Shown here in pieces: positions 2,787 through 17,826 of a stretch of 32,000 nucleotides of DNA (its first letter is position 1; each line of letters begins with the position of its first letter). The notes below the pieces were generated by a model. The model saw only the letters and a program-made list of their open reading frames with translations. It did not search any database and was not told where the DNA came from. The position numbers and the translations under genes were made by a program. The DNA lies in the IMG/VR virus record IMGVR_UViG_2551306257_000004, positions 3,278 through 35,277 of that record, one strand, 5' to 3'. The stretch is from a virus.

Positions 2787-5700
2787 GAAGTTCTACTCCT
2801 TAACTGTGTATTTTGACCGAGGTTGCGGTCAACTTTTCGACTGATAACTTTGCCATCCAGATATGTGTTTCCACTTCTGCGGACTTCGTCAATCAGTTCA
2901 TCAAACTTCTTGATCAAGCGTTGCTGACTGGCCACATTGTCAATGCTGTGCTGGACACTTTGAGGATTATGTGACACAGTGACACTGTTCATCAAGTTAG
3001 CTGCCATGTTTGGCAAATCAAATGAACCATCAAGCCCGGTCTGTACCAATTCTGACAATTGACCAGCCATACTTGATACATTGCTTTTGACTTCCTGCCA
3101 GCCTGAGCTGATACCACGGTTCAAACCAAACATGATGGCCAGACCATTATCAACCAAAAGACGTTTATCATAAGAAATTGGACCCTTGTTTCTCTTGATC
3201 CACTCAGCCATGCTCGATACACTAGCTGTGATTTGTGCCCATCCTGCATCAATCCCTGACTTCAAACCAGCCATTAGGGCCGTACCGTTAGAGTACAGGT
3301 TGACACCAGAACCAACATTTCTCAAAGAACTGTTCATGTTATTAACAGTGTTTTGAGTAGATGACACCATTTGTTGCCCGGCAGATTGCCAAGCTGAAAC
3401 CATTTGGCTTCCACCATTGCGTACTGCGGACACAATAGCCGTCATTCCATTCAAAACAGCTGATTTCATCTGATTCATAGTGGATTGGGTAATGGACACC
3501 ATTTGGGTCCCTGCGGATCTGATTGCAGTTGCCATCTGGTTCCCACCATTCCGAACTGCTGAAGCACTAGCAGTCATTCCATTTAGTACAACTGATTTCA
3601 CTTGTGACATTGATGCCTGCATTGCTGTAGTCATTTGAATACCCGCTGTGCGGATCGCTGTTGACATCTGCATACCCGCGTTAGAGATTGCCGCTGTTGC
3701 ACCAGCCATTGAAGACATGATACCAGCACCTAGTGCCGTTACCTGACCCAGTGCCTGACTAGATGCTGAACCTAACCGTTGCATGGCATTTCCTGCTGCA
3801 TTGGCTTGACCGTTAAAGGTTGCAAGCCCTGCACTTGCTACAGATGCAGATGGTCCAATGGTCATGAGCATGGAAGCAAATTGTGTAATAGTTGCACCAA
3901 TCGCCATCAAGCTAGTTAATGAAGACTGGGCACTGGTTGCAAAGGTCATCATAGCAGTGCCAGCCATAGTCATCATAGCTGGTAACGTTCCAAGGCTAGC
4001 TGATAGGGTTGTAAGGGCAGTTGGTAACATTTGAATAGCTACGCTAGCCATCCGAGCTGATGTCGCCATCGTTTGCATGCCCATTCCTGCCGCTTGAAGT
4101 CCAGGACCAGCAGAACCTATTCCAGAGGCTACAATAGCAGTCAATCCAACTGCTACTGCTGCAAGTGATGCACCCATATCTATGATGTTTAGACTTGTTA
4201 CTTTACTGATACCACTAGCCAAACGTTGGAACCCAGTTCCTGCGTTTAAGGCAGCATTACCGATTGAGTCAAAGACTCCAGCTACTGAGTCTAAAATCCC
4301 TGATACCGCTGAACCAAATGACTCAATAATCCCTTGGGCACCACTAAACACCGTTTCAAGTGTACCGTTGAATGTTTCCAATGCTCCTGAAAGACTATCA
4401 ATGATTGGTGGAATAACTGACGCTAAGTCGGTAAAAGCATTGATTATATTTGGTAGTTGAGAAACTACCGCCGTCACCATTTGGGTTATAGATGGAATAA
4501 ATGGAGCCAATGCCTGCACAATTTGGACAATTGCATTTGACACAATTGCAGCAAGTTGGTTAAAAGCGCTCATAATAGCTGGCAATATCGGAGTGACCGC
4601 CTGAACAATTTGCACTGCTGCTTGAGAAATTACCGTAACAACTTGAACAAAAGTAGAGCTAATAATAGCAATAATCGGTGTAAGTGCAGTAAGAATTTGG
4701 GCAACGCCTCCTGTAATTGCTGAAACAATCCCCGCAATTGCCCCACCAACTGCGGTTGCCACCATTGAAAATGCCGTACCAAATGCCACAACTAACGGTG
4801 AGAGCATCGACAATGCGGAAGCTATTGTTGTCATAACTGGGGCAAGAGAAACTAAGGCAGCAACAAAGGCTTGAAGTGTTCCTCCTACTAATTGAACGAA
4901 AATATCAGCTAATCCTTTCAAGAACGGAAGTACCATTCCCTGAACAGCACTTAATGCCACTAATGCAGCAGTTACCGCTGCAAGCCCCATCGCAAACGAA
5001 GCAACTCCGACTGGATTAAGCATAGAAATAGCTCTAGCTATCCCTTGGAATACAGTTGAAATAGCTGACCCAATCCCCTTGAAGATTGAAGCAATACCCT
5101 TTCCTAGTCCGGTAAAAGTATTCTTTACTGCAGTTCCTGCCGATTTTGCCATTTTAGATAGACCAGCGAACGGATTTGGTATTTTCGGAGCTGTCGGCTT
5201 GAATTTACTAAAAGGATTTGGAATCTTAACATCTTTAAGTTTTTTTAGTGCCACGATTGTAAGTCCAATAGCGCCAATAAGCGGGGTAAATGCTCCAATA
5301 TTCAACTTACTTAATGCTTGCTTGATGAAATCAAGCGCTGGCTGTACTTTTGTTTTTAATTCGTTAAATTTAGCAACTACGGCACTGATAGCGCTATTTA
5401 CAATGTTGCGGAATGTTTCAGAATGCTTATAGGCATAAACTAGACCCGCAACTAGGGCGGCGATTGCTACAATAGCAAGACCCCATGGGTTAGAGAGGAC
5501 GGCGCTTATTCCTTGGAAGGTAGCTTTTAGTGTACCAATACCCTTCATAATTCCGGACAAAGCCAGTAAGACAGGTCCAGCACCGACGGCAATCAAGGCA
5601 ACCCATTTTTGCCATGGTGCAAGCGGTAGATTGTCCCAGATAGTCTTGACCACATTGCCAACATTTTTAGCAAAGTTCTGAACCGTTGTCTTGAGGTTCG

Positions 5701-11183: not shown

Positions 11184-11217
11184 CAAAAAGAAAACTGGTC
11201 AATTTCGACCAGTTTTT
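11184..11217 (-). terminator. Rho-independent terminator, a symmetric hairpin that may act in both directions.
   Basis: AAAACTGGTC-aatttc-GACCAGTTTT is a 10-bp stem (11191-11200 / 11207-11216). On the - strand it is followed by CTTTTT. Confidence 0.6.
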
Positions 11218-15294: not shown

Positions 15295-16596
15295 TCATCT
15301 CCTCATCAATCTATTGATTGTCTTGATTTTACTTTCAACGTTTTGCTTATCTTTGACAAAAATAAGATTTTGCAAAGCATAGCGTATAGCATCAATACAG
15401 TGGTTATAGCTGTCACATGGCTTATTGATGTATTCATTTGTACGTTTGTCTTTCTGCCAGGTATAATTTTCTAATTCTTCAATAGTTTTGACACACCTTT
15501 CATCAACAATAATGTCAAACTGCTGCATGAATTGGACACCTTGCAAAACGGAACCTTTGCCTTTGTCAACGGGAATAGCCCTGCGTAATCCCAAAGTTTG
15601 AAGCTCTGCGATAGACTTCTGTTCCGCTGAGTCAGCCATAATGACTTCTTTGGAATAGCCAAGACTGGTGACTGCTTCAGCTATCTGATTATTCAGCAAA
15701 CCTTTTCTGACATACTCTTCCAAGATATAGATTTTCTTGTTTTCCCTGTCCACTTTGACATGCATGAATGCTGATGGGTCATTGGCAAAACCAAAGTCCA
15801 GGCCAAAATAGGACGGCAAGTGTGCCAGCTTGTCCTTATTGAGTAGCCTTTTTTCATACTTAGGAAAAATCAACTTGTCCAAGGTTGCAAACTCGCCCAG
15901 GGCATAGATTTTGTAATAAGCTTCATTCCTGTTGGCAAGCTCCTCAATGTTCTCCCTTGTCACATCATCCAAGAAACGATTGTCTTTGTAGGTTGTTTGG
16001 TAGATAACTGTGTTTTTGGGACGCTTAACAAAAAACGCATTAAAAACCCAATTCACTTTAGAAACTGGGTTGAACATGAGATAAATTTGTTTTTGTTTGT
16101 GCTTGCGATCACGCAAACGAAGTGTAAGCTGGGTATAATCGTCCAATGTGAACTCAGACGCTTCTTCCATGACCACATCTGAGATACCTTTGATAGACTT
16201 GATTTTCTCTGGGTTATCCAACCCCTTGAAAATAAATTGAGCACCGTTTGGCAGCTCAATCCGATAAGCTGAATTATTAACCTTGCACTTATCCAACAAG
16301 TCCCAGGCATCTAAGCACTGTTTGACATCTTCAAAGATTGAGTCATAGACCGTTGAACCAACCTTGCGTAGAAACAGAACCTTGCGAGGATGTTTCCAGT
16401 CTTTGCAAGCCTTGTAAACAACCTTCTGAATAACACCGTGACTTTTGCCGGAAGAGGCACCGCCATAGTGAATTTCAGTAAAGGTGTTATAATCTTCAAG
16501 CTTGTCATAGATATGCTTGTTGAAGACCCTACTAGGATACGGGACTGATATTTGAATACTTAGCTTTGGTCTAGTCTTCGTCAGCATCCCATTCAC
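15295..16596 (-). CDS. terL: Terminase large subunit (PBSX/Terminase_3-like).
   Basis: Walker A motif HYGGASSGKSHG near the N-terminus. 433 aa. It overlaps the terS stop. The start may be ATG 16587 (AGGTGA upstream) rather than GTG 16596. Confidence 0.9.
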   Translation of the reverse strand: MNGMLTKTRPKLSIQISVPYPSRVFNKHIYDKLEDYNTFTEIHYGGASSGKSHGVIQKVVYKACKDWKHPRKVLFLRKVGSTVYDSIFEDVKQCLDAWDLLDKCKVNNSAYRIELPNGAQFIFKGLDNPEKIKSIKGISDVVMEEASEFTLDDYTQLTLRLRDRKHKQKQIYLMFNPVSKVNWVFNAFFVKRPKNTVIYQTTYKDNRFLDDVTRENIEELANRNEAYYKIYALGEFATLDKLIFPKYEKRLLNKDKLAHLPSYFGLDFGFANDPSAFMHVKVDRENKKIYILEEYVRKGLLNNQIAEAVTSLGYSKEVIMADSAEQKSIAELQTLGLRRAIPVDKGKGSVLQGVQFMQQFDIIVDERCVKTIEELENYTWQKDKRTNEYINKPCDSYNHCIDAIRYALQNLIFVKDKQNVESKIKTINRLMRR

Positions 16597-17005
16597 CTAC
16601 CCTGATTTCAATCGTTCGTTGAGTGATTTCTTGCTTATCAACAAATAGACCATAACGCTTACCGAGATCAACGGCAGCACTTTTCCTAGTTGAAACGCTA
16701 GGCTTTGCCATGACCATCCGCTGAGTACCCTCACCGTCCAAGATAAGCAAAGGCTCCGTGACCTCTCCACGCATAACGGAAGTAAGGAACTCTAGGACTT
16801 CCTGCTGATCAGCAACCCGTTCAGACTGCAACTTTTCCAGCTGTTCGTCTATATAGGCTTTGACCATAGCATTTGATAGCAATCTACTACCATTTGCTTG
16901 AGCAACTGCATCCTTCTTAACATTCGGATAGGCTTTTTTATAGGCCCTTGTAGCGTTCAAACTTATAATGTACTCATCAGCAAAAATCTTCTGTTTTTCG
17001 GTCAT
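16571..17005 (-). CDS. terS: Terminase small subunit (Terminase_2-like).
   Basis: MTEKQKIFADEYIISLNATRAYKKAYPNVKKDAVAQANGSRLL is a typical terS N-terminal HTH. I set the start at ATG 17005, with GGAGG at 17023-17019. Confidence 0.85.
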   Translation of the reverse strand: MTEKQKIFADEYIISLNATRAYKKAYPNVKKDAVAQANGSRLLSNAMVKAYIDEQLEKLQSERVADQQEVLEFLTSVMRGEVTEPLLILDGEGTQRMVMAKPSVSTRKSAAVDLGKRYGLFVDKQEITQRTIEIRVGEWDADED

Positions 17006-17030
17006 CCCATGTCCATCACCTCCGTTCCTC

Positions 17031-17063
17031 AATAAAATAAAAACCCACACTTCATTGTGTGGG
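17031..17063 (-). terminator. Strong rho-independent terminator immediately upstream of the terS RBS.
   Basis: - strand CCCACAC-aatgaa-GTGTGGG (17063-17044) followed by TTTTTATTTTATT (17043-17031). The T-tract ends 7 nt before the terS GGAGG. Confidence 0.7.
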
Positions 17064-17345
17064 AAAAATATAGGAGAAAGACCCCTAGCGGAATCAAACC
17101 GTCCAGCTTATAACTTACCTAGGATATAAGTAGCTGTGCAATCTTGCAGGGCCTAGTCGCATCCGCAACCATTTCAAAGTTAATGAGTGATATATGAATT
17201 CTCGTCCAACGACTTACCCCATTCTGGGACACAAACACTCAAAGGGAACGACAGGAATCCAACCTGCCTACATCACAAAGATGCGTTGCGCAGACTCTCG
17301 TTCCCACAACCGGTAAGGCTTACTGCCTTACCCTTATTTCTTGAT
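17064..17345 (-). ncRNA. Candidate structured noncoding RNA or leader of unknown class.
   Basis: No credible ORF on either strand. An extended -10 TGcTATTAT lies at 17360-17352 (- strand). There are many stable hairpins, two with GGTTnGATTCC T-loop-like sequence. The region ends in the terminator listed above. Confidence 0.4.
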
Positions 17346-17391
17346 GATACTATAATAGCACGATTGTTTGACCAGTGCGCTACAGACTAGT

Positions 17392-17826
17392 TCACTTTAG
17401 TTCACTTTTGTCAATTACAGCACCTAGTTCACGGATTGCATCTTTCTTCTTTTTGTAGAAAGTAGTCTTGCTGCATTGTAAAAACTCAATCATATCATAT
17501 ACGCTTGCTTTCTGAATATACACCATCCTTAGAATTGTTCGACTTGCAGGTTTTGGCATTTTATCAATCAGCCTACTCAATTCAATTCTGCGTTTGATAG
17601 CTTCTTCAGTAGCATCTTTCATATACTCTTTCAAGGAATCTTGCATGCTAAAAATATCAATGTAACGTTCATCTAATTGAATCTTCTGACCCCCTTGAAC
17701 CTTATTCACGTTCATTTTAGGACTAGAAAGTAAACTAGCTTCAAGATTAGCAAGCTCATCAATTCGATTCTGTATCTCTTCATCCAAATTTTGTAGTTCA
17801 TCAAGTAACTCTTTAGCCTTGTTCAC
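17392..17826 (-). CDS. Late-gene transcriptional regulator, sigma-70 region-4-like HTH (RinA/ArpU/DUF1492-type).
   Basis: The C-terminal ASRTILRMVYIQKASVYDMIEFLQCSKTTFYKKKKDAIRELG is a region-4-type HTH. It is the last gene before terS. The likely start is GTG 17826 with AAGGAG 7 nt upstream; the track start is 17868. Confidence 0.6.
   Translation of the reverse strand: MNKAKELLDELQNLDEEIQNRIDELANLEASLLSSPKMNVNKVQGGQKIQLDERYIDIFSMQDSLKEYMKDATEEAIKRRIELSRLIDKMPKPASRTILRMVYIQKASVYDMIEFLQCSKTTFYKKKKDAIRELGAVIDKSELK

Follow-up and report, generated by a model that had tools for sequence, protein, structure and literature searches.

A probable late promoter and terminator-closed leader carrying tRNA-like structured RNA precedes terS in Streptococcus phages

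The 32,000-nucleotide (nt) stretch of viral DNA analyzed here (positions 3,278 to 35,277 of IMG/VR record IMGVR_UViG_2551306257_000004; hereafter, the window) contains, between the gene of a DUF1492-family late regulator and the terminase gene terS, a gene-free interval on the − strand. We consider it probable that 17407–17031 (− strand) represents the late promoter followed by an untranslated leader of ~310 nt, which provides a slot for stable-RNA cargo and is closed by a terminator. In the window, the cargo comprises a degenerate tRNA-like element, TLS1, and an abutting conserved RNA of ~165 nt (hereafter, the core RNA), of which more than 200 copies were gathered, all from Streptococcus phages or prophages. 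We rate the core RNA as a new family of phage tRNA-like structured RNA. It is annotated neither in Rfam 15 nor in phage records, and no prior description was found in the literature, in which one catalogue of 10,006 phage motifs (PMC10690425) is not checkable motif by motif. The original prediction, made from the letters alone, had offered either a discrete noncoding RNA or a terminated leader; each half is partly right, in that stable-RNA modules lie inside a leader of the late operon. The features of the locus, in the order of transcription, are as follows:

17392–17826, − strand: late regulator gene of the DUF1492 (LtrB) family (Pfam PF07374, E = 3e-28), the last early gene
17388–17407, − strand: two direct repeats AAGTGAACTA overlapping the regulator stop codon; presumed regulator-binding site
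17336–17360, − strand: predicted late promoter core, with the extended −10 TGCTATTAT (17360–17352), a second −10-like hexamer, TATCAT (17349–17344), and the predicted, conserved initial transcribed sequence ATCAAGAAAT (17345–17336)
17312–17333, − strand: 5′ leader hairpin GGGUAAGGC-AGUAA-GCCUUACC (in DNA, GGGTAAGGC/GCCTTACC), without a U tract
17244–17305, − strand: TLS1, a 62-nt degenerate tRNA-like element with an 8-base pair (bp) acceptor-like stem and a T arm, GGCAGG-UUGGAUU-CCUGUC
17171–17243, − strand: 5′ domain of the core RNA, with P1 (UGAGUG/CACUCA), P2 (UGUG/CAUA), P3 (CCC-AGAAU-GGG), a variable hairpin, and the linker UUAACUUUGAAAUG
17155–17170, − strand: hairpin P5 of the core RNA, GUUGC-GGAU-GCGAC
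17080–17153, − strand: 74-nt tRNA-like cloverleaf of the core RNA, a four-way junction in the RNAalifold fold
17118–17123, − strand: CCUAGG, a self-complementary hexamer within the long-arm loop of the cloverleaf and a candidate kissing-loop dimerization site
17031–17063, − strand: intrinsic terminator, with the stem-loop CCCACAC-AAUGAA-GUGUGGG (17063–17044) and the U tract UUUUUAUUUUAUU (17043–17031); −11.9 kcal/mol
16571–17023, − strand: terS (Terminase_2; Pfam PF03592, E = 4e-28), the first gene of the late operon, with the ribosome-binding site (RBS) GGAGG at 17023–17019 and the ATG at 17005

The late genes of the window occupy the − strand, where the gene-free stretch is followed by terS, terL (Terminase_3 in Pfam), and a portal-like open reading frame (ORF). 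Each of the motifs listed in the original prediction was located at its − strand position, GTTGC-ggat-GCGAC (17169–17156) and TGCA-agat-TGCA (17148–17137) included, and the claim that the interval lacks a credible ORF held: only mechanical ORFs of 39 to 67 amino acids overlap the region. These small ORFs matched nothing in Pfam or PHROGs at E ≤ 1, which is why we regard the stretch as noncoding, and 1- and 2-base indels between homologues disrupt every reading frame. The region folds with a minimum free energy of −116.9 kcal/mol, compared with −99.8 ± 5.5 kcal/mol for shuffled sequence (z = −3.1; 0 of 100 shuffles as good). ARAGORN reported no tRNA or tmRNA genes in the window, and Rfam returned no family at the gathering score and none that was convincing at E ≤ 10, riboswitches included; the weak matches comprised tRNA-Sec (E = 1.3) on 17305–17244 and a chance-level SAM/SAH hit on the terminator.

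The case for the core RNA comes from its homologues. By blastn, the region matched 81 Streptococcus phage records (S. suis, S. pneumoniae, S. mitis, and S. oralis), and in most of them the alignment was limited to the core (window 17245–17090, 75% to 87% identity), with flanks that could not be aligned. Across phages of these 4 species and of S. infantis, conservation of the core exceeds that of its flanks. A further 181 loci with 128 distinct cores, all from Streptococcus except for 2 chance hits, came from pattern scans run on collections of viral sequences and genomes, and the 128 sequences were assembled into a structure alignment (A2) and folded using RNAalifold. In the tested structure of 43 pairs, which spans the 5′ domain, P5, and the cloverleaf, 98.7% of cells are paired, versus 32% to 46% when partners are slid by 1 to 3 columns, and covariation amounts to 0.166, versus 0.108 after shuffling, with none of 500 shuffles reaching 0.166. 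Homologous regulator–terS intergenic regions, which the original prediction had singled out for a covariation check, are thus structured, conserved, and marked by compensatory base changes. Pairs 125:190 and 138:170 change from U-A to C-G and 106:115 also changes on both sides, whereas pair 126:137 is C-G in 60, U-G in 45, and U-A in 21 sequences. P5 keeps its pairing in the variants GUCCC/GGGAC and GUCG/CGAC (98.4% of cells paired), and the closing pair of P3 is C-G in 97 cases, U-A in 11, and A-U in 1. The variable hairpin of the 5′ domain occurs in 3 alternative forms.

The stretch UAUCACUCAUUAAC (17179–17192), which is also the 3′ strand of P1, is the most conserved part of the RNA. In 14 loci (pneumophages, L002:2735–2775, L003), the 5′ domain contains a 17-nt tandem duplication, UAUCACUCAUUAACUCC followed by UAUCACUCAUUAAC, that offers 2 alternative 3′ strands for P1. 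A resemblance of CACUCAUUAAC to the rrn boxA GCUCUUUAACAA was dismissed, since 9 of 13 positions are alike, which is about chance level by our estimate.

The cloverleaf consists of an acceptor-like stem, GGCCC(U)/(G)GGGUC, of 5 to 6 bp, a 4-bp arm with a tetraloop (17148–17137), a long arm of ~9 to 11 bp with an internal loop or bulge (17136–17104), and a T arm, GACGG-UUUGAUU-CCGCU (17103–17087). A seventh acceptor pair (120:195) was rejected, as it is unpaired in 51 of the 128 sequences. The T arm has the signature G53-C61, U54, U55, R57, and A58, with U instead of C at position 56. Its loop, UUUGAUU, is invariant and its stem covaries: pair 172:186 changes from A-U to G-C in 26 sequences and pair 173:185 from G-C to C-G in 22, with U-G also seen. 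Judged by this signature, we regard the T-loop as genuine. A canonical tRNA was rejected, given that neither ARAGORN nor RF00005 calls one and that the fold has no 7-bp acceptor, no G18/G19 D arm, and no 5-bp anticodon stem with a 7-nt loop; a tmRNA was likewise rejected, being called by neither ARAGORN nor Rfam. The tRNA, tmRNA, and Y-RNA models of ARAGORN and Rfam left the cloverleaf undetected, with no match on 17153–17080.

Frequent G.U pairs fit the late-gene strand only, and we therefore take the molecule to be an RNA of that strand. The same pairs bear on the notion that the region acts as DNA, for instance as a pac/cos site or a protein-binding palindrome, which we find hardly credible. 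Although a position directly upstream of terS, a 6-bp palindrome with short direct repeats, and a duplication of TATCACTCATTAAC in some phages would suit a DNA signal, the G.U pairs would be A.C mismatches on the opposite strand, the palindrome varies in sequence with its symmetry kept, and the same core precedes unrelated packaging modules, of the Terminase_2/3 and HNH types.

The covarying palindrome in the loop of the long arm is the strongest structural signal. In the same register, 215 of 216 copies carry CCUAGG, UCCGGA, CCCGGG, or GUCGAC; all 3 symmetric position pairs of the palindrome change on both sides, and 99.7% stay complementary. Because 6 adjacent bases cannot pair within one molecule, pairing between 2 RNA copies is the most economical explanation, and the pattern suggests dimerization through a kissing loop. 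Palindromic loops are a recognized RNA dimerization motif (PMC12990946). In the HIV-1 dimerization initiation site, described in the same work, a 6-base self-complementary hairpin sequence likewise stays palindromic in natural variants; the core RNA differs in being a noncoding RNA of a DNA phage rather than a packaged genome, in the uncertain size of its loop, and in that its dimer is only predicted. A duplex computed using RNAcofold for the long arm was excluded as evidence, being expected of any hairpin. The palindrome is also the central of 3 motif copies (CTAGG, CCTAGG, and CTAGG at 17156–52, 17123–18, and 17088–84) that had been proposed to form mutually exclusive helices. All 3 copies are present, with the central one forming the self-complementary loop and each outer one overlapping a strand of the acceptor-like stem, but flank-to-centre pairings are possible in 74% to 79% of cells with zero compensation, and the proposal was abandoned. 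The suggested riboregulatory switch fell with it, considering that these alternative pairings lack support and that no riboswitch or other Rfam family matched. Members of the family are found widely among S. pneumoniae, S. mitis, S. oralis, and S. suis prophages, and the structural signature (T-loop cloverleaf plus covarying palindromic loop) makes dimerization directly testable.

Several observations weigh against our preferred reading. The compensatory changes trace to few independent events, changes in 2 of the long-range pairs are confined to the S. suis clade, the halves of the T arm and of the palindrome show tight linkage, and the search patterns themselves account in part for the invariance of P1. 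Pairing in the distal long arm is ambiguous, with loops of 12 nt and 7 nt fitting about equally well. The window copy is itself slightly degenerate: its T stem contains an A.C mismatch (172:186) that no other copy has, and its tRNA slot holds a truncated element. Furthermore, the start site, 3′ ends, processing, and dimer, like the efficiency of the terminator, are predictions from sequence, and a strong terminator ahead of highly expressed genes is hard to square with simple leakiness.

A second unique substitution of the window copy replaces the UGAU tetraloop by AGAU (17138–17147), and with 2 such substitutions and a truncated tRNA-like element, the cargo of the window may be decaying. Extended to the whole block, the argument would be that the RNAs are non-functional debris, that is, decayed phage tRNA genes in a recombination hot-spot, conserved by recent spread. 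In favor of debris, the slot shows strong mosaicism and holds numerous tRNA-like cassettes that are odd or truncated, close relatives do without the block, and the window copy has its unique mismatches and truncated TLS1. We nevertheless judge debris improbable, because the core is conserved above its flanks across phages of 5 Streptococcus species, its variation is mostly compensatory or wobble and leaves 98.7% of cells paired, and 4 palindromes in one register are unexpected under neutral decay.

The cargo stands behind a conserved promoter. Upstream sequences from 120 loci share a near-invariant block, AATC-TGnTAnnAT-(2 nt)-TAnnAT-CAAGAA. The form AATC-TGnTAnnAT-..TATCAAGAA is present in 61 of 65 distinct upstream sequences, and the remaining 4, which are without the promoter block, all derive from loci with a different regulator. 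Phages of S. pyogenes and S. infantarius, whose DUF1492 genes are distant, also retain the promoter core. No −35 consensus was found in the aligned late promoters; a conserved GCAY element sits in the −35 region. Upstream of the promoter, the repeats follow the regulator. The window has the repeat type GTGAACTAAT, of which relatives with the same regulator type have 2 to 4 copies, and other regulator C-termini pair with other repeats (TGATAGTAAA, TGGCAGT, AAGTGAG, TGGGAC, and ATCTTGA). Regulator groups have their N-terminal and central parts in common and differ in the C-terminal helix-turn-helix. Given that the extended −10 is invariant in relatives and is preceded by repeats that track the regulator C-terminus, we assign it to the late promoter, predicted to be controlled by the DUF1492/LtrB regulator. 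DUF1492 constitutes family III (LtrB) of the late activators in the Ltr superfamily, where repeats just past the ltr gene are the recognition sites for the promoter upstream of terS (PMC3753634). A DUF1492 gene lies 43 to 340 nt upstream of the core RNA in 134 of 156 informative loci and is missing from the other 22.

Two −10-like hexamers stand in tandem 2 nt apart (17344–17360), as TATTAT-AG-TATCAT in the window and, for example, as TAGAAT-GG-TAGTAT in other promoter types. Conserved irrespective of regulator type, the arrangement could reflect a sigma-dependent promoter-proximal pause or an ambiguity over the true −10.

The −10 had originally been described as the element's own. It exists, but as an invariant late promoter with regulator-matched repeats it is not the promoter of a separate small gene. 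For the same reason, we think it unlikely that the interval is a free-standing small-RNA gene, with a constitutive promoter, a terminator, and a trans-acting product, and that late transcription starts elsewhere. Such a gene would account for a −10 and a strong terminator flanking an ORF-free, structured, and conserved sequence, and the GOLLD, ROOL, and tRNAs of phages are stand-alone RNAs. Against this, the U tract ends ~7 nt from the terS RBS (with typically 18 to 35 nt between hairpin and ORF in relatives), which leaves no room for a promoter, in cargo-free phages this promoter drives the first late gene directly, and the repeats above the promoter co-vary with the late regulator.

Between promoter and core RNA lies a slot for tRNAs. 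The original prediction had noted an 8-bp helix, GGGAACGA/TCGTTCCC (17305–17298 with 17251–17244), enclosing TGCG-caa-CGCA and a T-loop hairpin; the helix and T-loop are present, and we reinterpret them as TLS1, a degenerate tRNA-like element without D and anticodon arms. Its position is the slot of tRNA-Ser(GCU) in 70 of 181 relatives, where the tRNA ends exactly at the first U of the core, and the 5′ domain begins at the discriminator base of the upstream tRNA or tRNA-like element with zero gap. In the remaining loci, the upstream slot is filled by non-canonical tRNA-like cassettes. Other tRNAs (Lys, Trp, Glu, Phe, and unusual ones) occur 72 to 93 nt downstream of the core, or 6 nt in one locus. 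Other phages have an unusual 81-nt tRNA whose T arm and acceptor strand are matched by the 3′ half of TLS1, and full-length copies of TLS1 were found in the window and one IMG/VR contig only.

The cassettes (L222, L166, L137, L032, and L249, 100 nt upstream of the core; L291:3124–3200) have an acceptor stem, a GGUUCGAnUCC T arm, and odd bodies. They include an 81-nt "tRNA-???" of ARAGORN with a 2-base anticodon, one annotated as "tRNA-OTHER," and a 72-nt GGCGGUG...CACCGCC. One phage carries a different 72-nt tRNA-like cassette where another has the core. Directly after the 3′ domain of GOLLD (L004:8490–8530 and L291) lies a T arm with an acceptor 3′ strand, CAGGUUCGAGUCCUGUCGUUCC, which is near-identical to the 3′ half of TLS1; no 5′ acceptor partner was found nearby.

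The RNA block can be absent altogether. In Javan589 (S. suis), the regulator is 99.3% identical to that of the window and the repeats and promoter are identical up to ATCAAGAAAT, and yet the leader measures only ~50 nt, ATCAAGAAAT being followed by a hairpin, a U7 run, and the RBS of the first late gene. Since the same regulator and promoter occur with a leader of ~50 nt, we regard the RNA block as optional cargo. We surveyed leader length at 80 loci obtained from the regulator alignment (83 scanned, 78 measurable), at 69 of which the regulator has 86% or more identity to that of the window. Leaders fell into 3 ranges: 25 to 92 nt (cargo-free), 175 to 575 nt (tRNA-Ser with or without the core or other tRNAs), and 1101 to 1392 nt. 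GOLLD was found at 265 to 274 bits in 10 of 10 long leaders (>830 nt) run through Rfam. In annotated pneumophages, the order is the DUF1492 gene, tRNA-Ser(GCU), the core, GOLLD in some, and then terS or an HNH gene. The core is also present behind a regulator other than DUF1492, with a C-terminal helix-turn-helix that resembles sigma region 4 by eye, and is therefore not a regulator-specific cis element; its interpretation as a DUF1492-specific element was rejected on this ground. We also rejected the possibility that the core is the 5′ domain of GOLLD, because each occurs without the other and they lie ~400 nt apart when both are present. Among related phage loci, one contains a GP20-b RNA (RF03003, 52 bits; L050:2463–2525), far from the late leader.

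The slot is closed by the terminator, which had been correctly predicted: it is the best terminator-like site nearby on the − strand, and its U tract ends ~7 nt before the terS RBS. At least 87 of 122 distinct relatives have a hairpin with a U tract, typically 18 to 35 nt before the first late ORF, and the stems covary (GUCGCACA/UGUGUGGC, GUCACUC/GAGUGGC, CCCACAC/GUGUGGG, and ACACAUAUC/GAUGUGUGU). As no promoter fits into the ~7-nt gap between the terminator and the RBS, all late transcripts must traverse the terminator, an idea strengthened by its retention in cargo-free leaders of ~50 nt. These minimal leaders have a 10- to 13-bp hairpin and a U tract at about +12 to +50, whereas cargo leaders have a promoter-proximal hairpin without a U tract and a terminator placed after the cargo. 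In the window, the 5′ leader hairpin is a homologue of the ascending arm of the terminator that lies next to the promoter in minimal-leader phages (AAGGGUAAGGCAC...GCCCUU-UUUU). The regulator gene has no terminator of its own.

Our preferred reading of the leader as a cargo slot implies the following sequence of events. The late operon (packaging, head, tail, and lysis genes) would most likely be transcribed from a start ~7 nt past the extended −10, with the DUF1492/LtrB regulator serving the promoter through the repeats at 17407–17388. In the leader, stable RNAs like those of phage tRNA islands would find a slot, which in the window holds TLS1 and the abutting two-domain RNA. The modules join without spacers and without encoded CCA, and host RNase Z may cut after the discriminator-like base at the junctions, with RNase P acting at the 5′ side of the acceptor-like stems. 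Once freed, the conserved RNA would pair with a second copy through its palindromic loop. The terminator would work as a gate or attenuator that blocks read-through from the early operon as well as basal transcripts. Termination would yield a short, abundant, cargo-bearing RNA, and only read-through polymerase would express terS and the genes downstream.

A different division of labor, in which the extended −10 is largely constitutive and the default product is a leader RNA ending at 17031, would amount to antitermination as conferred by lambda Q. The DUF1492 protein or a put/EAR-like leader RNA would then make polymerase resistant to the terminator, and the tRNA-like RNAs would be passengers on an always-on transcript. 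We regard this as possible, though clearly the less favored account. In its support, most relatives, even those with leaders of ~50 nt, have a single hairpin with a U tract separating the first late gene from its promoter, and in cargo leaders the hairpin next to the promoter has lost its U tract and a terminator follows the cargo instead. An extended −10 needs no −35, the tandem −10-like hexamers are conserved, and the regulator gene and the promoter are directly adjacent, like Q and PR′. A functional RNA from PR′–tR′ termination has precedent (PMC7547250), the late operon contains more terminator-like sites, and the reporter data of PMC3753634 cannot separate activation from antitermination. 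However, the regulator belongs to DUF1492 and to no Q family, with weak likeness to sigma region 4 only (its matches among PDB profiles are weak, namely, the helix-turn-helix protein 3o60 Lin0861 at E = 0.03 and SigF at E = 0.46). Upstream direct repeats typify activators, related Ltr proteins are repeat-binding activators (PMC3753634), and the conserved GCAY in the −35 region suggests factor-dependent promoter recognition. Moreover, the core RNA is found with a different type of regulator as well and hence is not a regulator-specific cis partner, and the count of terminator-like sites in the late operon is not above that in shuffled sequence. The more far-reaching proposal, that LtrB regulators run a lambda-Q-like circuit in which the default-terminated leader is an expression platform for tRNAs, GOLLD, and the new dimerizing tRNA-like RNA, is speculative to a similar degree. 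If it were true, a trans-acting role would be conceivable for these RNAs, such as that of a decoy for host defences that target tRNAs or of a partner for enzymes of tRNA processing.

The strong terminator-like hairpins with U tracts inside the late operon lie on the − strand at 11216–11191, 11586–11565, 7835–7817, and 7301–7285. Partial termination at these hairpins may adjust gene dosage, or they may be additional sites that require read-through.

The arrangement can be compared with 2 known types of late control. As in the late promoters of Ltr regulators (RinA, ArpU, LtrA, LtrB/DUF1492, and LtrC; Quiles-Puchalt et al. 2013, PMC3753634), the regulator is the last early gene, specific repeats lie at its 3′ end, and a promoter ahead of terS serves the entire late cluster. 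In the staphylococcal and enterococcal cases of that study, however, a terminator precedes the promoter and the leader measures 28 to 118 nt, whereas in Streptococcus the promoter comes first, followed by a leader of 50 to 1400 nt with tRNAs, tRNA-like RNAs, and GOLLD, and by a terminator directly before terS. In a regulator family hitherto described as plain activators, a conserved terminator thus separates the late genes from their promoter, and we rate the terminator-gated leader as a design previously undescribed for Ltr-controlled phages. An intrinsic terminator in this position is a feature of Q modules, and the PR′–tR′ units of lambda and Stx phages (6S RNA and StxS; PMC7547250) show the same order of regulator gene, promoter, short terminated noncoding leader, and late genes; in Stx phages, the short terminated RNA is functional (PMC7547250). 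The differences are that the regulator here is no Q protein, that the leader holds tRNA-like modules, and that a constitutive promoter and antitermination are only putative. Simple reporters could reveal whether late control in these Gram-positive phages involves antitermination.

Among structured RNAs, GOLLD and ROOL (RF02032; PMC12286853) resemble the core RNA in being phage-borne, in lying beside tRNAs ("often near tRNA islands," PMC12286853), and in having unknown function. GOLLD fills the same leader slot in relatives (265 to 283 bits), and its model did not match the window at the gathering score or at E ≤ 10. GOLLD and ROOL self-associate through loop–loop contacts, for which the counterpart here would be the candidate palindromic loop; with a single such loop, a dimer is predicted rather than a cage. 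The core RNA also differs in size (~165 nt against >500–800 nt) and in being built around a tRNA-like cloverleaf. The late-operon leader is where these phages carry tRNAs and GOLLD, and GOLLD gains a late, terS-upstream transcriptional context.

Several larger RNAs contain tRNA-like structures that are cut by tRNA enzymes, including the mascRNA of MALAT1, the bacterial Y-RNA YrlA, and the tRNA-like domain of tmRNA. As in these embedded structures, the core RNA has an acceptor-like stem and a T arm with a T-loop signature inside a larger transcript, with CCA unencoded. It departs from them in lacking a G18/G19 D loop and a 7-nt anticodon loop with a conserved anticodon, in having U for C at position 56, and in an additional base that separates the T stem from the acceptor strand. 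By analogy, the ~165-nt RNA would work most like such tRNA-like modules of longer transcripts, and its genomic niche is one it has in common with GOLLD and ROOL.

Homologues of the DUF1492 regulator occur in 409 Streptococcus phage records. Distant homologues are also encoded by the Streptococcus satellite phages Javan756, Javan720, Javan475, and Javan219 (MK448644, MK448607, MK448512, and MK448369, respectively), which suggests that satellites carry late-regulator-like genes of their own.

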